The notes beneath the pieces were generated by a model, which saw only the letters and a list, made by a program, of their open reading frames with translations, did no database searches and had not been told where the DNA came from. The position numbers were made by a program, and so were the translations under genes. This document shows, one piece after another, positions 9,525 through 64,000 of a stretch of DNA of 64,000 nucleotides (positions within the stretch are counted from its first letter, which is position 1; the number at the start of each line of letters is the position of its first letter). The stretch is taken from NCBI RefSeq assembly GCF_055900595.2, contig NZ_CM148325.1, one strand, 5' to 3'.

Positions 9525-9581
9525 CCGGGAATCAGAAAGACGAAGGCCCCGACCGATATTTCTATCAACCGAGGCCAACGA

Positions 9582-28690: not shown

Positions 28691-28709
28691 ATGCATCACA
28701 TACTAAAAA

Positions 28710-31700
28710 TTAGAACGTTTTCTTGAAGTTCAGCATCACGCCTTTATCGCTGATACCATCCTCTTTCCAGTGGTAAGCATCCAGATTCAGCGAACTTTCT
28801 TTGCTGCTGTACTTCACGCCGACGCTTGCCAGACTGTTGATGCCGCCGCCCTTTTGCCCATCATCGACATTAAAGTGCTGGCTGCCTGCGCCTGCCAGGC
28901 TTGCCGTGCGCTGGCTCTTGCTGTAGCTGAGGTTCGGCCCACCTTCCAGCGCGGCGTTCGCACTCCAGCCGTCTTTGCCTGCGTAGTCCAGCTTCAGCCC
29001 AACGATGCTGTCCACCGCCGTTTCGCTGCCGCTGTTCATGCTCAGGTTAAAGTCTCCGGCATTGCGCTCCTGATAGTCGCCTTCCAGCATGTGACGCAGT
29101 TTCAGACCCGCATATGGCGTGATTTTCAGCCCTTCGCGCGGTTCAAAGGTTTTCGCCCCTTCGCTACGGAACTCCAGGTACTGTTGTTTCACATTCGTGT
29201 CTGCCGTCTTACTGATGTCGCCGTAAGCCACCGAACGGCTGCTGTCCAGTTGGTGAATATCGTAACGCAGCGCGTTATTCCAGCTCATACCGTTGTCAAA
29301 GGACATCTGATGCTTCAGGCCAAAGAACTGGCTGTAGCCGCCTGTAACACCATTATCACCCGCTTTCTGCGCACCGTCGCCGTCCAGACGGGCGATACCG
29401 TACTCCAGGCTCATGGTCTGGTTTTCGCTCAGGTCGAGGGTTTTACGCAGCGCCAGCATGTCGTACTCGGTATTGTTACCCAGCTCAGCACGCGGATCGC
29501 CTTTCGCCACCACGTTAAATGCCAGAGCGTTGCCCATCTTCGGTGCGGCGTCTGCCAGCATACTAAAGCGATTGCTTAACACACGCGCTTCGCGGAATAC
29601 CGTGGTCGCCTGGCTACCGCTAATTTGCTTAAGTGCGCTGTTCAGCTCTGCAGTGGTGCCGACGTTCAGACTGGTATACAGCTCATTGTTGGTGTAACCC
29701 GCATCCAGCGCTTTTGCCACGTCATTCACTGAGGCATCCGTCGCCACATCGGTGTAGGCTTTTTTGCTCATGGTCACGTCAACGTTGCCGCTGGCGTCGG
29801 TACTGCCTGTCGCCTGCCAGACAACAGATGTCGAAGTGATCGCTTGCGCATCGGTCAGGTTGCTGCCTTGCACCACATCATCAAAGCTGGCGGTTTTGTC
29901 CGCCGTTCCCGCCGCAAAAGCAGTGTTGATCTCCACGCCTTTCATACTGGCGTTATTGACCATCAGCTTACCAGCGCTACCATCGGCGTTCGTCCCCACC
30001 ACGTAACCATTGAGGTTGTTCATGCCATCGTTGCGGCTAACGGAAGAAGAATGACTGTCGTCGTATGGCGTAATGGTGGGTTCTTCCGGCGCGGTAAAGT
30101 CGACATAGTGTACTTCCGTACCGTCTCCCCCTTCACCACTGCCCTCCATCACCGTGCCAGATTGTTTAATTAATCCGGAACCATTCACGCTGTCGTCAAT
30201 ATAAACAGTGCCGTTGTTAACAATATGACCATTGCTCCCGAGCTTGCTGAAGGCATATGAATTGCTGGCATATATATTGATGGTGCCGTTATTCTCAATC
30301 ACCGCATCAGCCGTGGCATCGGACTCCAGTTGCATCCCTATCATGCCTGTCCTGCTGGTTCCTTGCGTGCCAACGTTTATGGTGCCGTTGTTGATCATTT
30401 TGGCTTTACCGTGCGCCGACATCGCCACATTACTATTTTTGTCGATATTAATAATGCCGTCGTTTATTGCCTTGCTGGCCGTGTTTGATGTCAGGATCTG
30501 CCCGTTGATGACGCCAGACTGGCCATTATAGAACGTATGCCCATCACCACCGGTGCTAATTCTCATGTCACCTTCAACTGTCCCCCAGTTATTAAAATGT
30601 CCTGTCCACAGCGCATTCGTCGCCACCGTTGCCACACCGCCTTCCAGATTGTTGAAGGTGCCACCTTTATCAACCGATGCGTTATGTACGGTACCAGCAT
30701 TATTGAAGGTAGAGGCTGCAGCAAAAGTTATTTTCTCTACTTTTCCACCGGCCTGATTATTCATTACGGCAGACCCGGAAGAACATTTCCAGGCATTCAC
30801 CGTTCCGGTGTTATAAAAACGGCTGGCCCACTGGTCAACCGTGTTGATGCTGCCTGAGTTGTGAATAATCGATCCTGCAACAGTCGTTCCGACTTGCCCG
30901 GTCACCATACCTTCGTTAGTGAACACTCCGCCATCCACAGAAACAGTTTTTGTCGTGCCGTGGTTGGTGTATTCCCCACCCGTTGCGATATCAACCTCAT
31001 TAATACTGCCCGTGGTTTCATTGACCAGATGACCAAAGTCAGCCACGGTGACAGGTCCCCCGGTGACCGTACCCGTGTTTGTTACCAGGGTTTCGGCGGT
31101 TGCCGTGATATCAGTAGTACCGCCATATGAAGACAGGTTAAGCGTTTCCCCGTCAGCCGTAATAATGTCACCATTTCTCCAGCTTAATGAAACAAACCCA
31201 TCAGTCGAGTTATAGGCGTTATTGTCCTGGCAAATACCAAAAGTACAGATGGTCCCGTAATTAACAATAGTCCCGCTGCCATCGTTATAGAACGCCTGCC
31301 CGTTTTCAGCATTAATATTGATGATGCCCGTCTGATCATTAATCGCAGTGGCACCATTGTAAACAGCCATGCCGACCAATTTATTTGGCCCCAGCGTATC
31401 ATCATCATTTTCATTTACTTCCAGATTTATAGTTCCCTGGTTAATAATAATGTTACCTGGCTTCATCGCAGCCATACCGGCACCGGAATTATAGAGTGTT
31501 ATTTCACCACCCTGCTGATTAATGGCGGTAGAATTAACGCTGGCACCAGAACTGTCTGTACCCACAGCCATCCCGACAGCATAATCTTTGGCGCTGTCAT
31601 GAGCGATATTGGACGCCAGACTGGAAGTATCGTTTTCATCAACCCATAATGCGTCAATGAAAATCTTACCCATATTGTCAATGGTTGAATTATTGGAGGC

Positions 31701-34202
31701 CAGCATGCCAACACTCCCCCGGCCGTACATTTGGATCTCACCGGCAGTATTATTTAAAGCGGTGCCATTGTTGCCTGCCGTCATCCCCGTCAGACTAATG
31801 ACTTGATTATTAAAAATTAAAGGGTCACTCAAACCTTGAGCGTTCAGACTATTGAAAATACGTCCCTGCGCGAGTACCTTACTGGTGATGGCACTGTTAT
31901 TAACAACTCGACCACCATAGACGCTCAAATACGCAGAACTAGCAGAGTCTGATGTATTCCCCTCTACGCCGTAGATAGAAATCGTTACGTTGTTATTATT
32001 TACAGCTAGCGACTCTTCACCAGTAGCCCTGGCAAAGCCAATATTACCCAGTTCTACATCACCATTATTTATCATCTGCGAACCGGAATTCACCAGTACA
32101 ACCTGTGATGTGTCACTATTATAATGATCAAATGTATTTATATCTTTTAGGATAAAAGTGGCGTTGCGGCCAAGTTCTAAATGGGCTCGGTTATTCAGTT
32201 GAATGATATCGCCTAATCCAAGCGGAAAAACACCACTGATTGTTGAATCCCCATTTAGATACAGAGTAGAGTGCCCATCGATTTTGATAACAGGCGTATC
32301 GCCATAACCATTACGTTTTAAAGCAGGTGTGGAGCCATCCTGTAGAGTATTTTCTTCGCCAGCTAAATGGATACCACCATTAATTTCGACGGTATTACCG
32401 TCACCCGACACAACCAGACCATTAATATTTTCCTGGCTGCCATCCATTTCATTATAGCTACGAGAAGTGACTTCACTGTCAGCAACAATGGTAAGATTGC
32501 CATTTAATACGATATTATTGTCGTGTCCCTGCACCTGAATGCCAACAGAAGGGGTAAAAAAGTCATTTATTGAATGCTCTCCGGCCTGATTTTTATCCAC
32601 CAGAATATTACCGGTAATTTCAACTTCATTGCCATCACCGGCTACATTTACCCCTGTCGCAACACTGCCAGTCACATTAAGCTCATTTGTCGCCAGCGTC
32701 ATGGCGTTATTATTTCCAGACACATCCAGACCGGTTGAATAATCCCCTACATCCACACGGCCAGCCAGAGAAATCAGACCATCATCTCCAACGACGCGAA
32801 TCCCGGTACTGAAATTATTAGCAATGATGTCCCCCACATTGATAAGAGTAGAATGATTACCCTCAATCAGAATCCCTGTCGCATTGGCCTCTGAACTACC
32901 ATTACTGACGGAAATATCCCCCCTGTTAATGAACGTCGACGCATCACCACTGAGAGAAACACCCAGCGAATTTTCATCCACGACCGTTATATTGCCTTTA
33001 TTGCTGACGATCGCGCCATTACCCTCAACATCAATACCCCGTGCAGCATTGCTAACGTATAAATCCCCTTCCTGTATAACCGTCGCATTATTACCAACGA
33101 TTTTGCTGCCCGTTGAATTTTGCCCATCAACCGTCATATGTCCTTTATTATCGGTCCTGACATCATTACCGCTAATAACGGCCCCTATTCCGCCGTTATT
33201 GACAGTGGAGTCGCCAGTGTTATTTAAGATTGTACGATCGCCATTGACGATAACCGCCGTGCCAGCATCGACCACCGTCTGACCGTTATTATTGATGGTT
33301 ATATTATCGCCGGTCAGGATACCGACCACCGAATCTTCACCGACAGCCTCTGTTTTACCCTCGTTTGTCAGCGCAATGTTGTTACCATTAATCATCATCA
33401 CCGTGCCGCCATTCAGGGCCGTGTTACCGCCCTGGTCAGTGATAATCGCATCATTAACGGTAATTATTCTGCCCGTTGTTCCATCAGACACGACACTGGC
33501 TAACTGTGTGACGTGGAGTTTACCTTCGTCATCGTAGCGCCATTCCATATCACCTGTGGTACTCACACCACTAAAGATGGCGGTATGAGTCTCTTCATGG
33601 TTTTCCCACTCTGTCACAATGGTTTTTCGGCCATCTTTTGCCGACAGCGTGTAGCTACCATCGACATTCTGTATATAGGTGAACGTTGCCCCGCGAATCT
33701 TCAGGGTTTGCGCGTCCTTGTCCCATGTCACATTGTTATCAAAGACAACGGGTTCTGTTCTCGGTAGGTCAACATCATCACCGCTATTGTCGGGTGGAAT
33801 AACATTACCGCCGTTATCTGGCTTTACAGGTATACCTGAATCTTCATCACTGGGAACGGGTAGCGGTAGAGGGCCATTATCATCTGGCGGTATGGGCTGG
33901 GGAAAAGAAGAGTGAGCAGAATGATCATTGTCATGAGACAATTCAATCACTGCGAGTGTTGCCAGTACCGCCGTGGCACCTAATGCCAGTAACGAGCTGA
34001 AACCATTATTTGTAACAACAGCACATTTTTCTGGCACTGTTTTCAACTTCGTTGACGGTCGGGCGTGCCCTTCTGACTGACATGTCATTTGAGAGCTTCT
34101 GCGCATACTGTCTGCACTCTCGCCTTCTGTTATTTCCGCCCCCCAGCTTTGGCCACTTAACGCTATAGCGATACACGCTGATAATAACGTTTTCTTTTGC
34201 AT
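28710..34202 (-). CDS. ydbA: YdbA autotransporter (type Va) with long beta-helical repetitive passenger and C-terminal beta-barrel, uninterrupted
   Basis: 1830 aa single ORF; signal peptide; Pro-rich linker; many degenerate ~20-aa Gly/Asn/Thr/Val-rich repeats (NNGTINV...-type); C-terminal barrel ending ...MLNFKKTF. Confidence 0.88.
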   Translation of the reverse strand: MQKKTLLSACIAIALSGQSWGAEITEGESADSMRRSSQMTCQSEGHARPSTKLKTVPEKCAVVTNNGFSSLLALGATAVLATLAVIELSHDNDHSAHSSFPQPIPPDDNGPLPLPVPSDEDSGIPVKPDNGGNVIPPDNSGDDVDLPRTEPVVFDNNVTWDKDAQTLKIRGATFTYIQNVDGSYTLSAKDGRKTIVTEWENHEETHTAIFSGVSTTGDMEWRYDDEGKLHVTQLASVVSDGTTGRIITVNDAIITDQGGNTALNGGTVMMINGNNIALTNEGKTEAVGEDSVVGILTGDNITINNNGQTVVDAGTAVIVNGDRTILNNTGDSTVNNGGIGAVISGNDVRTDNKGHMTVDGQNSTGSKIVGNNATVIQEGDLYVSNAARGIDVEGNGAIVSNKGNITVVDENSLGVSLSGDASTFINRGDISVSNGSSEANATGILIEGNHSTLINVGDIIANNFSTGIRVVGDDGLISLAGRVDVGDYSTGLDVSGNNNAMTLATNELNVTGSVATGVNVAGDGNEVEITGNILVDKNQAGEHSINDFFTPSVGIQVQGHDNNIVLNGNLTIVADSEVTSRSYNEMDGSQENINGLVVSGDGNTVEINGGIHLAGEENTLQDGSTPALKRNGYGDTPVIKIDGHSTLYLNGDSTISGVFPLGLGDIIQLNNRAHLELGRNATFILKDINTFDHYNSDTSQVVLVNSGSQMINNGDVELGNIGFARATGEESLAVNNNNVTISIYGVEGNTSDSASSAYLSVYGGRVVNNSAITSKVLAQGRIFNSLNAQGLSDPLIFNNQVISLTGMTAGNNGTALNNTAGEIQMYGRGSVGMLASNNSTIDNMGKIFIDALWVDENDTSSLASNIAHDSAKDYAVGMAVGTDSSGASVNSTAINQQGGEITLYNSGAGMAAMKPGNIIINQGTINLEVNENDDDTLGPNKLVGMAVYNGATAINDQTGIININAENGQAFYNDGSGTIVNYGTICTFGICQDNNAYNSTDGFVSLSWRNGDIITADGETLNLSSYGGTTDITATAETLVTNTGTVTGGPVTVADFGHLVNETTGSINEVDIATGGEYTNHGTTKTVSVDGGVFTNEGMVTGQVGTTVAGSIIHNSGSINTVDQWASRFYNTGTVNAWKCSSGSAVMNNQAGGKVEKITFAAASTFNNAGTVHNASVDKGGTFNNLEGGVATVATNALWTGHFNNWGTVEGDMRISTGGDGHTFYNGQSGVINGQILTSNTASKAINDGIINIDKNSNVAMSAHGKAKMINNGTINVGTQGTSRTGMIGMQLESDATADAVIENNGTINIYASNSYAFSKLGSNGHIVNNGTVYIDDSVNGSGLIKQSGTVMEGSGEGGDGTEVHYVDFTAPEEPTITPYDDSHSSSVSRNDGMNNLNGYVVGTNADGSAGKLMVNNASMKGVEINTAFAAGTADKTASFDDVVQGSNLTDAQAITSTSVVWQATGSTDASGNVDVTMSKKAYTDVATDASVNDVAKALDAGYTNNELYTSLNVGTTAELNSALKQISGSQATTVFREARVLSNRFSMLADAAPKMGNALAFNVVAKGDPRAELGNNTEYDMLALRKTLDLSENQTMSLEYGIARLDGDGAQKAGDNGVTGGYSQFFGLKHQMSFDNGMSWNNALRYDIHQLDSSRSVAYGDISKTADTNVKQQYLEFRSEGAKTFEPREGLKITPYAGLKLRHMLEGDYQERNAGDFNLSMNSGSETAVDSIVGLKLDYAGKDGWSANAALEGGPNLSYSKSQRTASLAGAGSQHFNVDDGQKGGGINSLASVGVKYSSKESSLNLDAYHWKEDGISDKGVMLNFKKTF

Positions 34203-34848
34203 GAGAAATCCTTTTCAATGAATGACATTTCAAATAATAAAATATGAGTAATAGATAAGAAATAGCCACAGGCTGTGTCATGATTTAATGTCTGCTCTTG
34301 AAATTTTATTTAGCAATCCCAGAACATTCAACTTAATTAGTATTTCGAAACCTCAATGTAGACACATAAAAAACAAATTATTCGATTACTTAGGCTATTT
34401 GTTGCATTATTACACATCCTCTAACAATAATCAGACAAAAAGCAATGTCAGCGTCAAATTGGGTAGCTGATTCATATTACTGACCACTCCGGAAATTCAT
34501 TCATCGTGAAAATATTAACATTTCAACCATGTTCCATTTAATCAACCCACTGAAAATCTGGAGGTTATCTACTGCGGTTTGTTGTTGACTGCCCCTGACA
34601 GGTTTACCAGGCGTTGACAGAAGATGAGGCTTGCAAGATGCTAAAAACAATGTGGTGTTACAAGCAATCCCATAAACCTCGTAACTTCACTGAAATGAGC
34701 GATGCCGTCCATATTTGGGTTGACTATAAAAACCCTTAATATTGAGGTTGATGATGATATTCATGATGGCATTGGAAAAATAGGACACCCATAAAATATC
34801 TATACAGCCTTTAAATTAAATCATTGAAATATCGCTGTTGCATAGTGC

Positions 34849-35172
34849 TTATTTTTGCAACCATTTCCCGTTAATTCCCTGCACATATTCCCCCGGTTTG
34901 GCCCGAGCTACAAGCTTTTGCCCGGCGAGTTTCGCGATATCATCTACCGAGACATTATTTTGCTTTGCCAGTTGTTGGTAACTCACTTTACGTGCGGCAT
35001 TAATCTCGGTTACTAATTTCTCTGTTTCAGCATCCGTTTTCAACGCAACCAAATAACCGTTAAATGTTTCACCTACCCGCCCCTGGGTTCTGGCCTCGTC
35101 CAGTGTTAATGCCACTACATTGCTGCTTACCAGTCCAACAAGAAACGCACAAAGAAGTAATGTTTTCTTCAT
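34849..35172 (-). CDS. ydbL: YdbL (DUF1318) periplasmic protein
   Basis: ORF 34849..35253; canonical start MKKTLLLCAFLVGLVSSNVVA (signal peptide) at 35172. Confidence 0.88.
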   Translation of the reverse strand: MKKTLLLCAFLVGLVSSNVVALTLDEARTQGRVGETFNGYLVALKTDAETEKLVTEINAARKVSYQQLAKQNNVSVDDIAKLAGQKLVARAKPGEYVQGINGKWLQK

Positions 35173-35179
35173 CATCCCC

Positions 35180-35365
35180 TCAGAAAAGATCGCTACGGGT
35201 TTTGAGTAAATCTTCGACATCTTTGTCTGCCTTAATGATGATCTCATGCTCAATTTTAACGTTCATATTGATAGTGATCGGTTCCTTAGGTGCAGCGACT
35301 TCAATGCGAGGCGTACAGCCAACCAGCATAAAAGATGACGTCAACGCAGCCAGTAAAATTTTCAT
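35180..35365 (-). CDS. ynbE: Lipoprotein YnbE
   Basis: 61 aa with lipobox LVGC; overlaps ydbH stop by 4 nt. Confidence 0.88.
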   Translation of the reverse strand: MKILLAALTSSFMLVGCTPRIEVAAPKEPITINMNVKIEHEIIIKADKDVEDLLKTRSDLF

Positions 35366-45350: not shown

Positions 45351-45866
<516 letters not shown>

Positions 45867-45873
45867 CACTAAC

Positions 45874-45898
45874 GCCCGCACATTGCTGCGGGCTTTTT
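45874..45898 (+). terminator. Intrinsic terminator of uspF
   Basis: GCCCGCA-cattgc-TGCGGGC followed by TTTTT. Confidence 0.75.
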
Positions 45899-46041
45899 GA
45901 TTCATTTCGCAAATGTGCTGACATTTTCCCCTCTAATCCGTACCATACACGCCACAGTTTTTATATCAGATTTCTTATGCTGGGCGTTCCGGCATGACGC
46001 ATACTCTTCTGATGCCATATAACGAATTGAGTCGCTTTTAA

Positions 46042-46977
46042 ATGTCGCAAAATCAAGAAATTAGTAAGAAAGAACAATACAACCTGAACAAATTACAAAA
46101 ACGTCTGCGTCGTAACGTGGGCGAAGCCATTGCTGACTTCAATATGATTGAAGAAGGCGATCGCATCATGGTTTGCCTCTCCGGGGGTAAAGACAGCTAT
46201 ACCATGCTGGAGATTCTGCGCAATTTGCAGCAAAGCGCTCCAATCAATTTTTCGCTGGTGGCTGTTAACCTCGATCAAAAGCAACCGGGCTTCCCGGAAC
46301 ACGTTCTGCCCGAGTATCTTGAAAAGCTGGGCATTGAGTACAAGATTGTGGAAGAGAACACTTACGGTATCGTGAAAGAGAAGATTCCGGAGGGCAAAAC
46401 CACTTGCTCACTGTGTTCTCGTCTTCGTCGCGGAATTCTTTACCGTACCGCAACGGAACTGGGAGCGACGAAGATCGCGCTGGGTCACCATCGTGACGAT
46501 ATCCTGCAAACGCTGTTCTTAAATATGTTCTATGGCGGCAAGATGAAAGGTATGCCACCGAAACTGATGAGCGATGATGGCAAACATATTGTGATTCGTC
46601 CGCTGGCCTACTGTCGCGAGAAAGATATTCAACGCTTTGCCGATGCAAAAGCGTTCCCGATTATTCCGTGCAACCTGTGCGGTTCACAGCCTAACCTGCA
46701 ACGTCAGGTGATTGCTGACATGTTGCGTGACTGGGATAAACGTTATCCGGGGCGTATCGAGACGATGTTCAGCGCGATGCAGAATGTGGTGCCGTCGCAT
46801 CTGTGCGATACCAACCTGTTCGATTTCAAAGGCATTACCCACGGTTCTGAAGTGGTTAACGGGGGTGATCTGGCGTTTGATCGCGAAGAGATCCCTCTAC
46901 AACCGGCGGGTTGGCAGCCTGAAGAAGATGAAAATCAGTTGGATGAGTTACGACTGAATGTGGTTGAAGTGAAATAA
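46042..46977 (+). CDS. ttcA: tRNA 2-thiocytidine(32) synthetase TtcA
   Basis: 311 aa, PP-loop SGGKDS and CxxC Fe-S motifs. Confidence 0.93.
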
Positions 46978-47024
46978 CCCGGATAGCGCCCGATGCGCAA
47001 GCTTATCGGGCTACTCTTATGGAG

Positions 47025-60626: not shown

Positions 60627-60869
60627 GATGTAATCCTTGTGCAGACAAATTTTTTGTTACCTCTATGCAACAATACCATGACATTTCACTCTTGTCTGCT
60701 CTGAAAACCTCACCTCTTAGCCGGATTTACAATCAATGCATTGATTTGTTAGCTAATGTTGCTACTTACTTCCCTGACTATTGATGATCTGAATGAATTG
60801 TCGCGGTAAAATATCCCCGCCAGGGGTTTCCGGCATGACGACAATTATCTGGAGGAGCCTGATAAAACA

Positions 60870-61946: not shown

Positions 61947-63560
61947 TCAATGTTTCACAATATACATAGTCCGGCTATACGCCACATCTTCCGGGTTATT
62001 AATGGGATAACCTTTCAGCCACGGTTTGATTAATCGTCCATTGGTATATTGATAAATTGGTGCAATCGGTGCTTGCTCCATGAGGATTTTTTCTGCCGCG
62101 TTGTAATCGGCATTACGCGCTTTAACGGTATTTTCCGTCGATGCCTGGGCCAAAACTTTGTCGTAGGCCGGGTTGTTAAAGCGTGAAATGTTGCCTGAAT
62201 GCGTTGACGTTAATAATGTCAGGAAGGTGGAGGGTTCATTATAATCCCCCACCCACGAGGCGCGGATAACATCAAAATTACCTGTATTACGACTATCGAT
62301 ATAGGTTTTCCATTCCTGATTTTGCAGTTTGACATCTACACCAAGGTTCTTTTTCCACATCGATGCCACAGCAATCGCAATTTTTTGATGGTTTTCTGAA
62401 GTATTATACAAAAGCGTCAGCTTCAGCGGTTTTTGCGGACCATAACCGGCTGCGCTCAACAAAGTTTTTGCCTGCGCATTCAGTTCTTCCTGACTCATTT
62501 GTTCAAACGGCGAAGGCTCCGGCGTGAATCCGGCAGTAACATCTGGCGTAAAATGCCACGCTGGTTTTTCGCCCGTCCCCAACACTTTTTCGGTCATCAG
62601 GCGGCGATCTATCGTCATACTTAATGCCAGGCGAACGCGCTGATCTGCCGTCGGCCCTTTTTGCGTGTTAAACGCATAATAATAGGTCCCGAGCTGCGGC
62701 GGCGTATAAACCTGCCCCGGAATATCCTTCAACAGCTTCTGATACATATTTTTCGGGAAGGATTCGGTGATATCAATATCCCCCGCGAGATAACGCTTAG
62801 TGGCAGCGGATTCCTGATTAATTGGCAGGAAGGTCACTTTTTGCAGTACCGTTTTGGCGTTATCCCAATAATGGGTATTCGGCACCACGACCAGTTTTTC
62901 ATTGACTACGCGCTCTTTAAGAACATAAGCGCCATTGCCGATCAGATTTCCGGGTTTCGTCCACTCTTTACTGCTTTCTACGTTGGCTTTTTGCACCGGG
63001 AAGAAGGCAAAGTTAGCGGTTAAATTCACAAACCACGGCAATGGTTTATCAAGCTGGATTTTCAAAGTATGGGCATCAACTGCGGTGACGCCAAGCTGGT
63101 CAGGCGTGGCTTTACCATCAATAATCGCCTGTGCGTTGTTGATTCCCGCCAGCGCGGCAAACCATGCAAATGGCGAAAGTGTTTTCGGGTCCACCAGACG
63201 CTGCCAGCTGTAGACAAAATCTTGCGCCGTTACCGGTGTGCCATCCGCCCATTTTGCGTTATCGCGCAGGGTAAAAGTCCAGATACGGTTGTCATTACTT
63301 TTCCACTGAGTCGCAACGCCAGGGACAATCTCCCCTTTCTCGTTCTGATTCACCAGTCCTTCAAATAGATCGCGAATGACCTGAATCTCTGGCAGGCCCA
63401 CGGCTTTAGCGGGATCCAGCGACGCAGGCTCATCTTTAATGTGGCGCACCAGCTCCTGCTTCTCTGCCAGTACTGTGCCGCTCGGAACTTCTGCAGCATA
63501 CGAAAGAGAAATGCTGCTGACCAACAGCGCACAACACGTGACTGAAACAGAGTGCTTCAT
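61947..63560 (-). CDS. mppA: Periplasmic murein tripeptide-binding protein MppA
   Basis: 537 aa family-5 solute-binding protein with signal peptide. Confidence 0.93.
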   Translation of the reverse strand: MKHSVSVTCCALLVSSISLSYAAEVPSGTVLAEKQELVRHIKDEPASLDPAKAVGLPEIQVIRDLFEGLVNQNEKGEIVPGVATQWKSNDNRIWTFTLRDNAKWADGTPVTAQDFVYSWQRLVDPKTLSPFAWFAALAGINNAQAIIDGKATPDQLGVTAVDAHTLKIQLDKPLPWFVNLTANFAFFPVQKANVESSKEWTKPGNLIGNGAYVLKERVVNEKLVVVPNTHYWDNAKTVLQKVTFLPINQESAATKRYLAGDIDITESFPKNMYQKLLKDIPGQVYTPPQLGTYYYAFNTQKGPTADQRVRLALSMTIDRRLMTEKVLGTGEKPAWHFTPDVTAGFTPEPSPFEQMSQEELNAQAKTLLSAAGYGPQKPLKLTLLYNTSENHQKIAIAVASMWKKNLGVDVKLQNQEWKTYIDSRNTGNFDVIRASWVGDYNEPSTFLTLLTSTHSGNISRFNNPAYDKVLAQASTENTVKARNADYNAAEKILMEQAPIAPIYQYTNGRLIKPWLKGYPINNPEDVAYSRTMYIVKH

Positions 63561-63742
63561 AAGTTTCCCTCAAACCTGCGTTAATAATCATGCGTAATTA
63601 TTTGTTTCGCCTTAAAGAAATGCAAACAACTTCCGGCAAAAAAGTGATACAAGATCGATAACATAGCGTTGAAGAAAAGGATTTGATAATCCGCAAAATT
63701 TGCACAACACTGCCTGTAATACTTCCTGAACCAGAGACGATT

Positions 63743-64000
63743 ATGACCGTAACCCGCCCACGCGCCGAACGCGGCGCATTTCCGCCCGGAACAGAACATT
63801 ACGGACGTTCATTATTGGGCGCGCCTTTGATCTGGTTTCCGGCCCCAGCCGCCAGTCACGAAAGTGGTTTGATTCTGGCTGGCACCCACGGTGATGAAAA
63901 CTCTTCGGTCGTGACCCTCTCCTGTGCTCTGCGGACATTGACACCTTCTTTGCGCCGCCATCATGTGGTGCTGTGTGTGAATCCTGACGGTTGCCAGTTA
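63743..64000 (+). CDS. mpaA: Murein peptide amidase A (MpaA), N-terminal part (gene runs off window end)
   Basis: MTVTRPRAERGAFPPGTEHYGRSLLGAPLIWFPAPAASHESGLILAGTHGDENSSVVTLSCALRTL... zinc carboxypeptidase-like; truncated by window. Confidence 0.8.
   Translation, partial: MTVTRPRAERGAFPPGTEHYGRSLLGAPLIWFPAPAASHESGLILAGTHGDENSSVVTLSCALRTLTPSLRRHHVVLCVNPDGCQL

Follow-up and report, generated by a model that had tools for sequence, protein, structure and literature searches.

The window, as we call the whole stretch of 64,000 nucleotides analysed here, ends in two divergent genes, mppA and mpaA, that are separated by an uninterrupted spacer (Table 1). MppA delivers murein tripeptide, MpaA reportedly cleaves the γ-D-Glu–Dap bond, and YcjG is said to epimerise L-Ala-D-Glu. 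The mppA gene encodes a protein of 537 aa that is 99.8% identical to K-12 MppA, and the gene carries the annotation mppA also in the near-identical genome NZ_CP098223.1. The end of the window cuts mpaA after codon 86, and over these codons the identity to K-12 MpaA is 98.8%, as determined by translation and tblastn. The full-length mpaA of the near-identical locus L001 matches the Pfam family Peptidase_M14. In this locus, which is 99.94% identical, ycjG is convergent with mpaA and overlaps its 3' end; the window itself stops inside mpaA. The start codons of the two genes lie 183 bp apart, exactly as in the original prediction, leaving a spacer of 182 bp.

Table 1. Features at the mppA–mpaA junction (positions in the window)
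Feature	Position	Strand	Basis
mppA, periplasmic murein-tripeptide binding protein gene	61947..63560	-	ORF list, translation, tblastn
Divergent control region mppA/mpaA, 182 bp, "empty site"	63561..63742	.	Sequence; same length in other Escherichia
mpaA 5' part (ATG at 63743), murein tripeptide amidase, M14 zinc carboxypeptidase	63743..64000	+	Translation, K-12 identity
Candidate mppA σ70-like promoter: -35 TTTGCA 63626..63621, 18-nt spacer, -10 AATAAT 63602..63597	63597..63626	-	Consensus scan, conservation
30-bp segment AAATGCAAACAACTTCCGGCAAAAAAGTGA, single copy in the window; cassette insertion point	63618..63647	.	Local blastn, pattern search
Conserved block AAAGTGATA, straddling the end of the 30-bp segment	63641..63649	.	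Per-column conservation, 78-spacer alignment
Candidate mpaA element TTGATA-N17-AACACT: -35 63683..63688, -10 63706..63711	63683..63711	+	Motif search, conservation

In tblastn searches with YcjY and YmjC as queries, no homologue was found within the 64-kb window, and with PgrR the search hit just LysR genes other than pgrR, at 26-29% identity and at other places in the window. The K-12-type block, with pgrR divergent from ycjY, does not occur in the window, and a spacer of 182 bp is too short to hold pgrR. The distal gene of the K-12 operon, mpaA, is present. No co-oriented ycjY, ymjD or ymjC lies upstream of it, and the spacer can be aligned over its full length with uninterrupted spacers of outgroup genomes.

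The mppA–mpaA junction in K-12 and other E. coli genomes

In K-12 MG1655 the gene order is mpaA, ymjC, ymjD and ycjY, followed by pgrR and mppA, with 2628 bp between the start codons of mpaA and mppA. The K-12 gene order on which the original prediction was based, with a ycjY-ymjD-ymjC block and a divergent pgrR between the two genes, was thus right. That PgrR regulates the K-12 operon, which was also part of the prediction, is documented: a secondary source lists ycjY-ymjDC-mpaA, ycjG and ycjXF-tyrR as the regulon of PgrR (YcjZ) (PMC5934670). In genomic SELEX, the RpoE and RpoH holoenzymes bind the ycjY/ycjZ spacer (PMC5493296). We will refer to the DNA that K-12 carries in addition to the window spacer as the cassette.

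The comparison with K-12 and other E. coli genomes that had been proposed was made by a megablast search of the window junction against 5426 complete genomes, in which the K-12 cassette sequence was searched separately. The junction locus was present in 5418 genomes, uninterrupted in 173 of them and matching in two separate places in the others, and the cassette sequence was found in 5244 of the 5426. The block therefore lies between the two genes in K-12 and in about 97% of the complete genomes, and direct adjacency is not the norm within E. coli, in line with the contrast that had been drawn. Cassette-bearing and uninterrupted genomes add up to 5417 of the 5418 genomes with the locus (5244 + 173), indicating that cassette and empty site are essentially mutually exclusive, and that empty-site genomes do not carry the cassette elsewhere. 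These counts also bear on the question whether the empty junction is an assembly or sequencing artefact. A collapse of the two 30-bp direct repeats that bound the cassette (see below) could in principle remove the intervening DNA in an assembly, but the junction is found in 173 independently assembled complete genomes, genomes that are cassette-free at the site lack the cassette everywhere, and the same layout is common to outgroups, so that the chance of such an artefact is negligible.

Eight complete E. coli genomes are 100% identical to the window junction over 451 bp. Based on the best 60 of the 173 uninterrupted-junction genomes and four fetched loci, the uninterrupted genomes fall into two groups. 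The first is that of the window (~15-16 genomes) and includes 2013C-4282 and EC42405. The second includes 2016C-3878 and the ST648 strain IMT16316, and its junctions are 97.3–97.6% identical to that of the window among the matches listed. According to the title of a reference cited in PMC10100065, the ST648 complex belongs to phylogroup F.

Adjacency of mppA and mpaA in Enterobacteriaceae

The outgroup survey consisted of an MpaA scan of GTDB species representatives, which gave 80 loci (E. fergusonii is not among them), followed by tblastn with K-12 proteins. In 76 of the 79 loci with both genes, mppA and mpaA are divergent and 138–316 bp apart (median 184 bp), a range that includes the 182 bp of the window. 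The spacer measures exactly 182 bp in E. albertii, E. whittamii, Escherichia sp. MOD1-EC7003 and two divergent records labelled E. coli, and direct adjacency was also found in Citrobacter, Enterobacter, Leclercia, Kluyvera, Raoultella, Pluralibacter and others. Of the three loci that deviate, the one in Escherichia sp. E1V33 contains a K-12-type cassette, and those in two Salmonella subspecies contain inserted DNA of an unrelated kind. This near-universal adjacency argues that the uninterrupted pair is ancestral and that the K-12 state is derived. Thus, the view that ycjY-ymjD-ymjC and pgrR are "missing" from the window, in the sense of having been lost, was not borne out, since it is K-12 that carries an insertion. 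Compared with the mppA<>mpaA–ycjG murein-peptide catabolic cluster of Enterobacteriaceae, the window shows the same divergence, the same spacer length (~182–190 bp) and the same conserved motifs; there is no structural difference, only lineage-level SNPs.

The insert in the mppA–mpaA spacer of Salmonella enterica subsp. arizonae and diarizonae (L024 and L025) is 3.1–3.4 kb long. In L024 (3848-7000) it encodes cdtA, cdtB and cdtC, visible as two Pfam CDtoxinA proteins flanking an Exo_endo_phos nuclease. The cargo, cytolethal distending toxin genes, is unrelated to the E. coli cassette, and the window has no insert; foreign DNA was nevertheless accepted in the same intergenic region, which suggests that this spacer is a recurrent landing site for foreign DNA.

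Anatomy of the cassette junctions

The 2628 bp between the start codons in K-12 equal the 182 bp of the window spacer plus 2446 bp, and at either end of the extra DNA lies a sharply delimited direct repeat of 30 bp with the sequence AAATGCAAACAACTTCC[AT/GG]CAAAAAAGTGA. This segment, present as a single copy in the window, is duplicated at both cassette ends in cassette-bearing E. coli, where the copies are identical at 28 of 30 positions. K-12 and E1V33 have their two copies 2446 bp apart, and in O111:H8 and 2011C_4247 the distance is 4006–4008 bp. Of the ancestral spacer, 87 bp next to mppA and 125 bp next to mpaA are preserved in K-12, with ~96% identity to the window. The two loci share the flanking genes ynaI, mppA and mpaA as well as both conserved promoter-like elements described in the next section, and they differ in that K-12 has pgrR, ycjY, ymjD and ymjC, and the 30-bp segment twice instead of once. 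Beyond the mppA-side repeat copy of 2011C_4247, 12 of 18 positions (counted by hand) resemble the ancestral continuation, and the original duplication may therefore have been longer than 30 bp.

This anatomy is what would be expected if the K-12 layout arose when a foreign module of 2.4–4 kb entered the spacer, bringing with it pgrR, the divergent ycjY, and genes for a second α/β-hydrolase and an SDR oxidoreductase. A stretch of 30 bp of spacer DNA would have been duplicated in the process, and both native promoter-proximal regions would in this way have remained intact.

Candidate promoters in the spacer

An alignment of 78 spacers, with a median length of 184 bp, was scored for conservation per column, and displayed sharply conserved blocks within a variable background. 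A σ70 consensus scan of the window spacer found a candidate promoter on the mppA side only. Over the 78 spacers, the mppA-side pair, TTTGCA or TTGCAT followed after 17–18 nt by AATAAT, accounted for 156 scan hits at one aligned position, and the corresponding motif ATTATT-N17/18-TGCAA is present in 72 of the 78, including the window. This σ70-like pair is a credible candidate for the mppA promoter. Its -35 is part of the 30-bp segment of which K-12 has two copies, indicating that the insertion preserved the candidate promoter.

On the mpaA side, a looser scan of the 78 spacers gave no uniformly conserved canonical σ70 match, and the motif TTGAT-N17-AACACT was therefore searched directly. In the form TTGAT[A/T/C]-N17-AACACT, with an exact spacing of 17 nt, it occurs in 72 of the 78 spacers, again including the window, it mostly ends 30–32 bp before the mpaA ATG, and its columns have a conservation of 0.9–1.0. 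It is very probable that mpaA has its own promoter in the spacer, most likely located at TTGATA-N17-AACACT. However, AACACT matches the -10 consensus TATAAT at 3 of 6 positions, and because this is a weak -10, the element could possibly be a regulator-binding site instead. A further conserved block, at 63641..63649, reads AAAGTGATA in the window and AAAnTTGATA in other genera. An Rfam scan of 63300..64000 (E ≤ 1) gave no match, thus the conserved blocks are not explained by a known riboswitch or sRNA. Comparison by eye with the consensus sequences for σ54, σ28, σE, CRP, FNR and PurR/LacI-type regulators gave no convincing fit.

In the arrangement that these motifs suggest, mppA and mpaA would be transcribed outward from a compact, shared control region of 182 bp, mppA driven by the conserved σ70-like promoter and mpaA most likely by TTGATA-N17-AACACT, ~30 bp upstream. 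The mpaA gene would then form a monocistronic unit that receives no input from PgrR or the ycjY promoter. In contrast to K-12, there is in the window no co-transcription of mpaA from a ycjY promoter and no PgrR repression at that promoter, as both PgrR control and the ycjY promoter region that binds RpoE and RpoH are additions made by the K-12 cassette.

The original prediction held that mpaA must have a promoter of its own and is free of the PgrR operon, which could change murein-peptide recycling. The own promoter is favoured by the widespread mpaA-side element, but it is not special to the window strain, since K-12 retains both promoter-proximal segments and has the same DNA intact. The freedom from PgrR is correct to the extent that the PgrR and ycjY-promoter inputs are absent, and this absence is the sole difference from regulation in K-12. 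A strain-specific rewiring, in which a recent adjacency gave rise to a new promoter for mpaA and changed how murein peptides are recycled, could appeal to the lack of PgrR and of the σE/σH-associated ycjY promoter inputs relative to K-12. Yet the spacer and both motif pairs are common to dozens of genera and to the promoter-proximal segments of K-12, so that nothing new was created, and such rewiring is very improbable.

Phylogenetic position of the window

The window is 99.94–99.97% identical to strain Z0117EC0005, two IS elements aside. Compared with K-12, the identity is 97.5% over the adjacent 14.7 kb and 96.8% for the ynaI–mppA stretch. A locally imported segment as the cause of the low identity to K-12 was considered and rejected: the similar identity in adjacent regions indicates that the divergence from K-12 is a property of the lineage, not of one segment. 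In neighbour-joining trees of mppA, ynaI, mpaA–ycjG and tpx, the proxy used for the window clusters with 2013C-4282, and in the mppA and ynaI trees the two branch outside the other sampled E. coli. About 15 genomes that match best at the junction are also the best matches at a second 8-kb region of the window. Across junction and 8-kb region, the identity to the window is 99.0–99.1% for 2013C-4282 and 98.8–99.1% for EC42405, and in the 8-kb region it declines gradually, from 98.7% to 98.5% and 98.3%, with no sharp gap. Both strains are listed as complete genomes of cryptic clade I, which forms the monophyletic sister of E. coli sensu stricto (PMC10100065). Based on these two regions and two named strains, the window probably comes from a strain of Escherichia cryptic clade I.

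In the closest relatives of the window, the region between tpx and tyrR, just past the window end, contains additional hypothetical genes that K-12 does not have. These encode two proteins of 406 aa and 242 aa in L001 (9189-11231) and a single one of ~680 aa in L092 (7738-9780); the two L001 proteins gave no Pfam match.

Retention or loss of the cassette

We consider it very probable that the window represents the ancestral, uninterrupted mppA<>mpaA pair, and that its lineage, which groups with clade I, never acquired the pgrR–ycjY cassette. The mppA side of the window spacer carries the outgroup-type bases CTCAAACCTGCGTTAATAAT, as do L003 and L004 and unlike cassette-bearing E. coli. On the other side of the 30-bp segment, the window has the outgroup A at 63660, where the four cassette-bearing strains that were examined have G. 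The window also has the outgroup GG within the 30-bp segment, which fits retention, and would equally fit one crossover position of a repeat-mediated deletion.

This last point leads to the main alternative, that an ancestor of the window possessed the cassette and lost it by a precise deletion between the 30-bp repeats, or by replacement with an empty allele. Direct repeats of 30 bp with 28 identical positions are a substrate for such a deletion, which would leave exactly the 182-bp sequence without a scar, and in other strains the cassette is visibly decaying by deletion. Moreover, the group of 2016C-3878 and IMT16316 nests among cassette-bearing E. coli in trees of the flanks, and the mppA side of its spacer is identical to theirs, making loss or allele replacement plausible in that group. 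Its alleles are nevertheless mixed, as even these ST648-type spacers keep the ancestral A at 63660. For the window lineage, the outgroup-type SNPs to either side of the 30-bp segment and the branching outside the sampled E. coli sensu stricto speak against loss, and all other Escherichia examined except E1V33 are uninterrupted, so that loss requires one event more than retention. Secondary loss in the window lineage therefore appears improbable, and the outgroup-type SNPs in combination with the branching order favour simple retention of the ancestral state. The most parsimonious position for the cassette insertion would be the stem of E. coli sensu stricto.

Parsimony based on presence and absence is, however, weaker than it appears, since the cassette seems to move between lineages. 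In Escherichia sp. E1V33 (L006 4431-6906), the reduced cassette of the K-12 type is present at 97.1% identity, yet the flanking genes show differences of ~10–14% from the window lineage (flanks ~89–90% identical) and cluster with E. whittamii. This combination suggests that the cassette can cross species-level lineages by means of flanking homology.

Forms, decay and origin of the cassette

In O157:H7, O111:H8 and 2011C_4247, the full cassette consists of pgrR facing ycjY, a second α/β-hydrolase gene, which is frameshifted in some strains, and a gene for a 212-aa SDR oxidoreductase. It is bounded by the same junctions and the same 30-bp repeat as the K-12 form, and occupies the insertion point that is empty in the window. 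Another form lacks only the second hydrolase. In the K-12 form this hydrolase is gone, leaving ymjD. A further 683 bp, reaching from within the SDR gene to the repeat boundary, are lost as well, apparently at an AATA/ATAA microhomology, and ymjC is what remains. The ymjC gene is an N-terminal remnant of the SDR/NAD-binding gene, and its match to Pfam NAD_binding_10 covers only positions 1 to 34, with a score slightly under the gathering threshold. These forms would fit a decay of the cassette after its insertion, in which K-12 was left with ymjD and ymjC after loss of the second hydrolase and of the SDR gene's 3' part.

At least three structural forms of the cassette occur in E. coli, full (L087, L089, L093), without the second hydrolase (L088, L094) and K-12-type (L002), all of them common among the 40 matches listed. 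A pangenome study reported that the prevalence of ymjC varies by phylogroup and is associated with lactic-acid resistance (PMC9602453), a pattern that may simply reflect the structural alleles of the cassette. The cassette-bearing E. coli 400625 has an mpaA that contains an internal stop and carries the annotation of a pseudogene (L088 982-1710).

Outside Escherichia, the closest YcjY homologues (81–88% identity) belong to Pluralibacter, Rhizobium, Agrobacterium, Sphingobium and Burkholderia, a distribution that mobile genes typically show. A colinear module occurs in P. gergoviae in another genomic context; it has a PgrR-like protein (79% aa identity), a YcjY-like protein (83% aa identity) and a second hydrolase, with 69.5% DNA identity over 2 kb. 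The mppA and mpaA genes of P. gergoviae itself are adjacent (L058). Judged by these relationships, the cassette is a horizontally acquired module.

Implications for PgrR control of peptidoglycan recycling

The layout of the window is ordinary synteny variation, and we see no sign of new biology in the window as such. What modest interest there is lies in the cassette, namely in the promoter-sparing 30-bp duplication, the reductive decay into ymjD and ymjC, and the spread by recombination. As a caution, K-12 should not be used as the ancestral reference at the mppA–mpaA locus: the "PgrR switch" of peptidoglycan recycling in K-12 is part of a decaying cassette of horizontal origin, and this cassette is absent from clade I, from the group containing ST648, and from nearly all other Enterobacteriaceae examined. 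On a practical level, a simple PCR across the junction could be used as a marker (182 bp versus 2.6–4.2 kb), and cassette-free lineages offer natural controls for what PgrR adds.

A wider reading, which we put forward tentatively and would not rely upon, is that the cassette marks E. coli sensu stricto as opposed to clade I, and that its 30-bp duplication spared both native promoters while a foreign LysR- and σE-responsive promoter was layered onto mpaA. The lineages with an empty junction (clade I and ST648-type) might then reveal, as such controls, that the control exerted by PgrR over peptidoglycan recycling is an accessory layer of recent date and not part of the core circuit, one that would change mpaA expression under envelope stress.

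Other differences in gene content

The window lacks the IS150 copy and the IS200/IS605 tnpA copy (~9567-9569, ~2812-2817) of Z0117EC0005, and is otherwise 99.97% identical to this strain over 47 kb. Unlike K-12, it has no Rac prophage by ttcA (~45400-47000, uspF to ttcA); ttcA, uspF and ompN are contiguous in a near-identical genome. Between ynaI and ynaJ, where K-12 has an IS5, the window has none (~60749-60752). The feaRB-tynA-paa cluster, which in K-12 lies between ydbL and the autotransporter gene, an order that is partly visible in the data, appears to be absent from the window. The K-12 autotransporter gene, ydbA, is a disrupted pseudogene, and the window carries an intact autotransporter gene of 5.5 kb directly after ydbL (~28700-35200, ydbL to pdxI).
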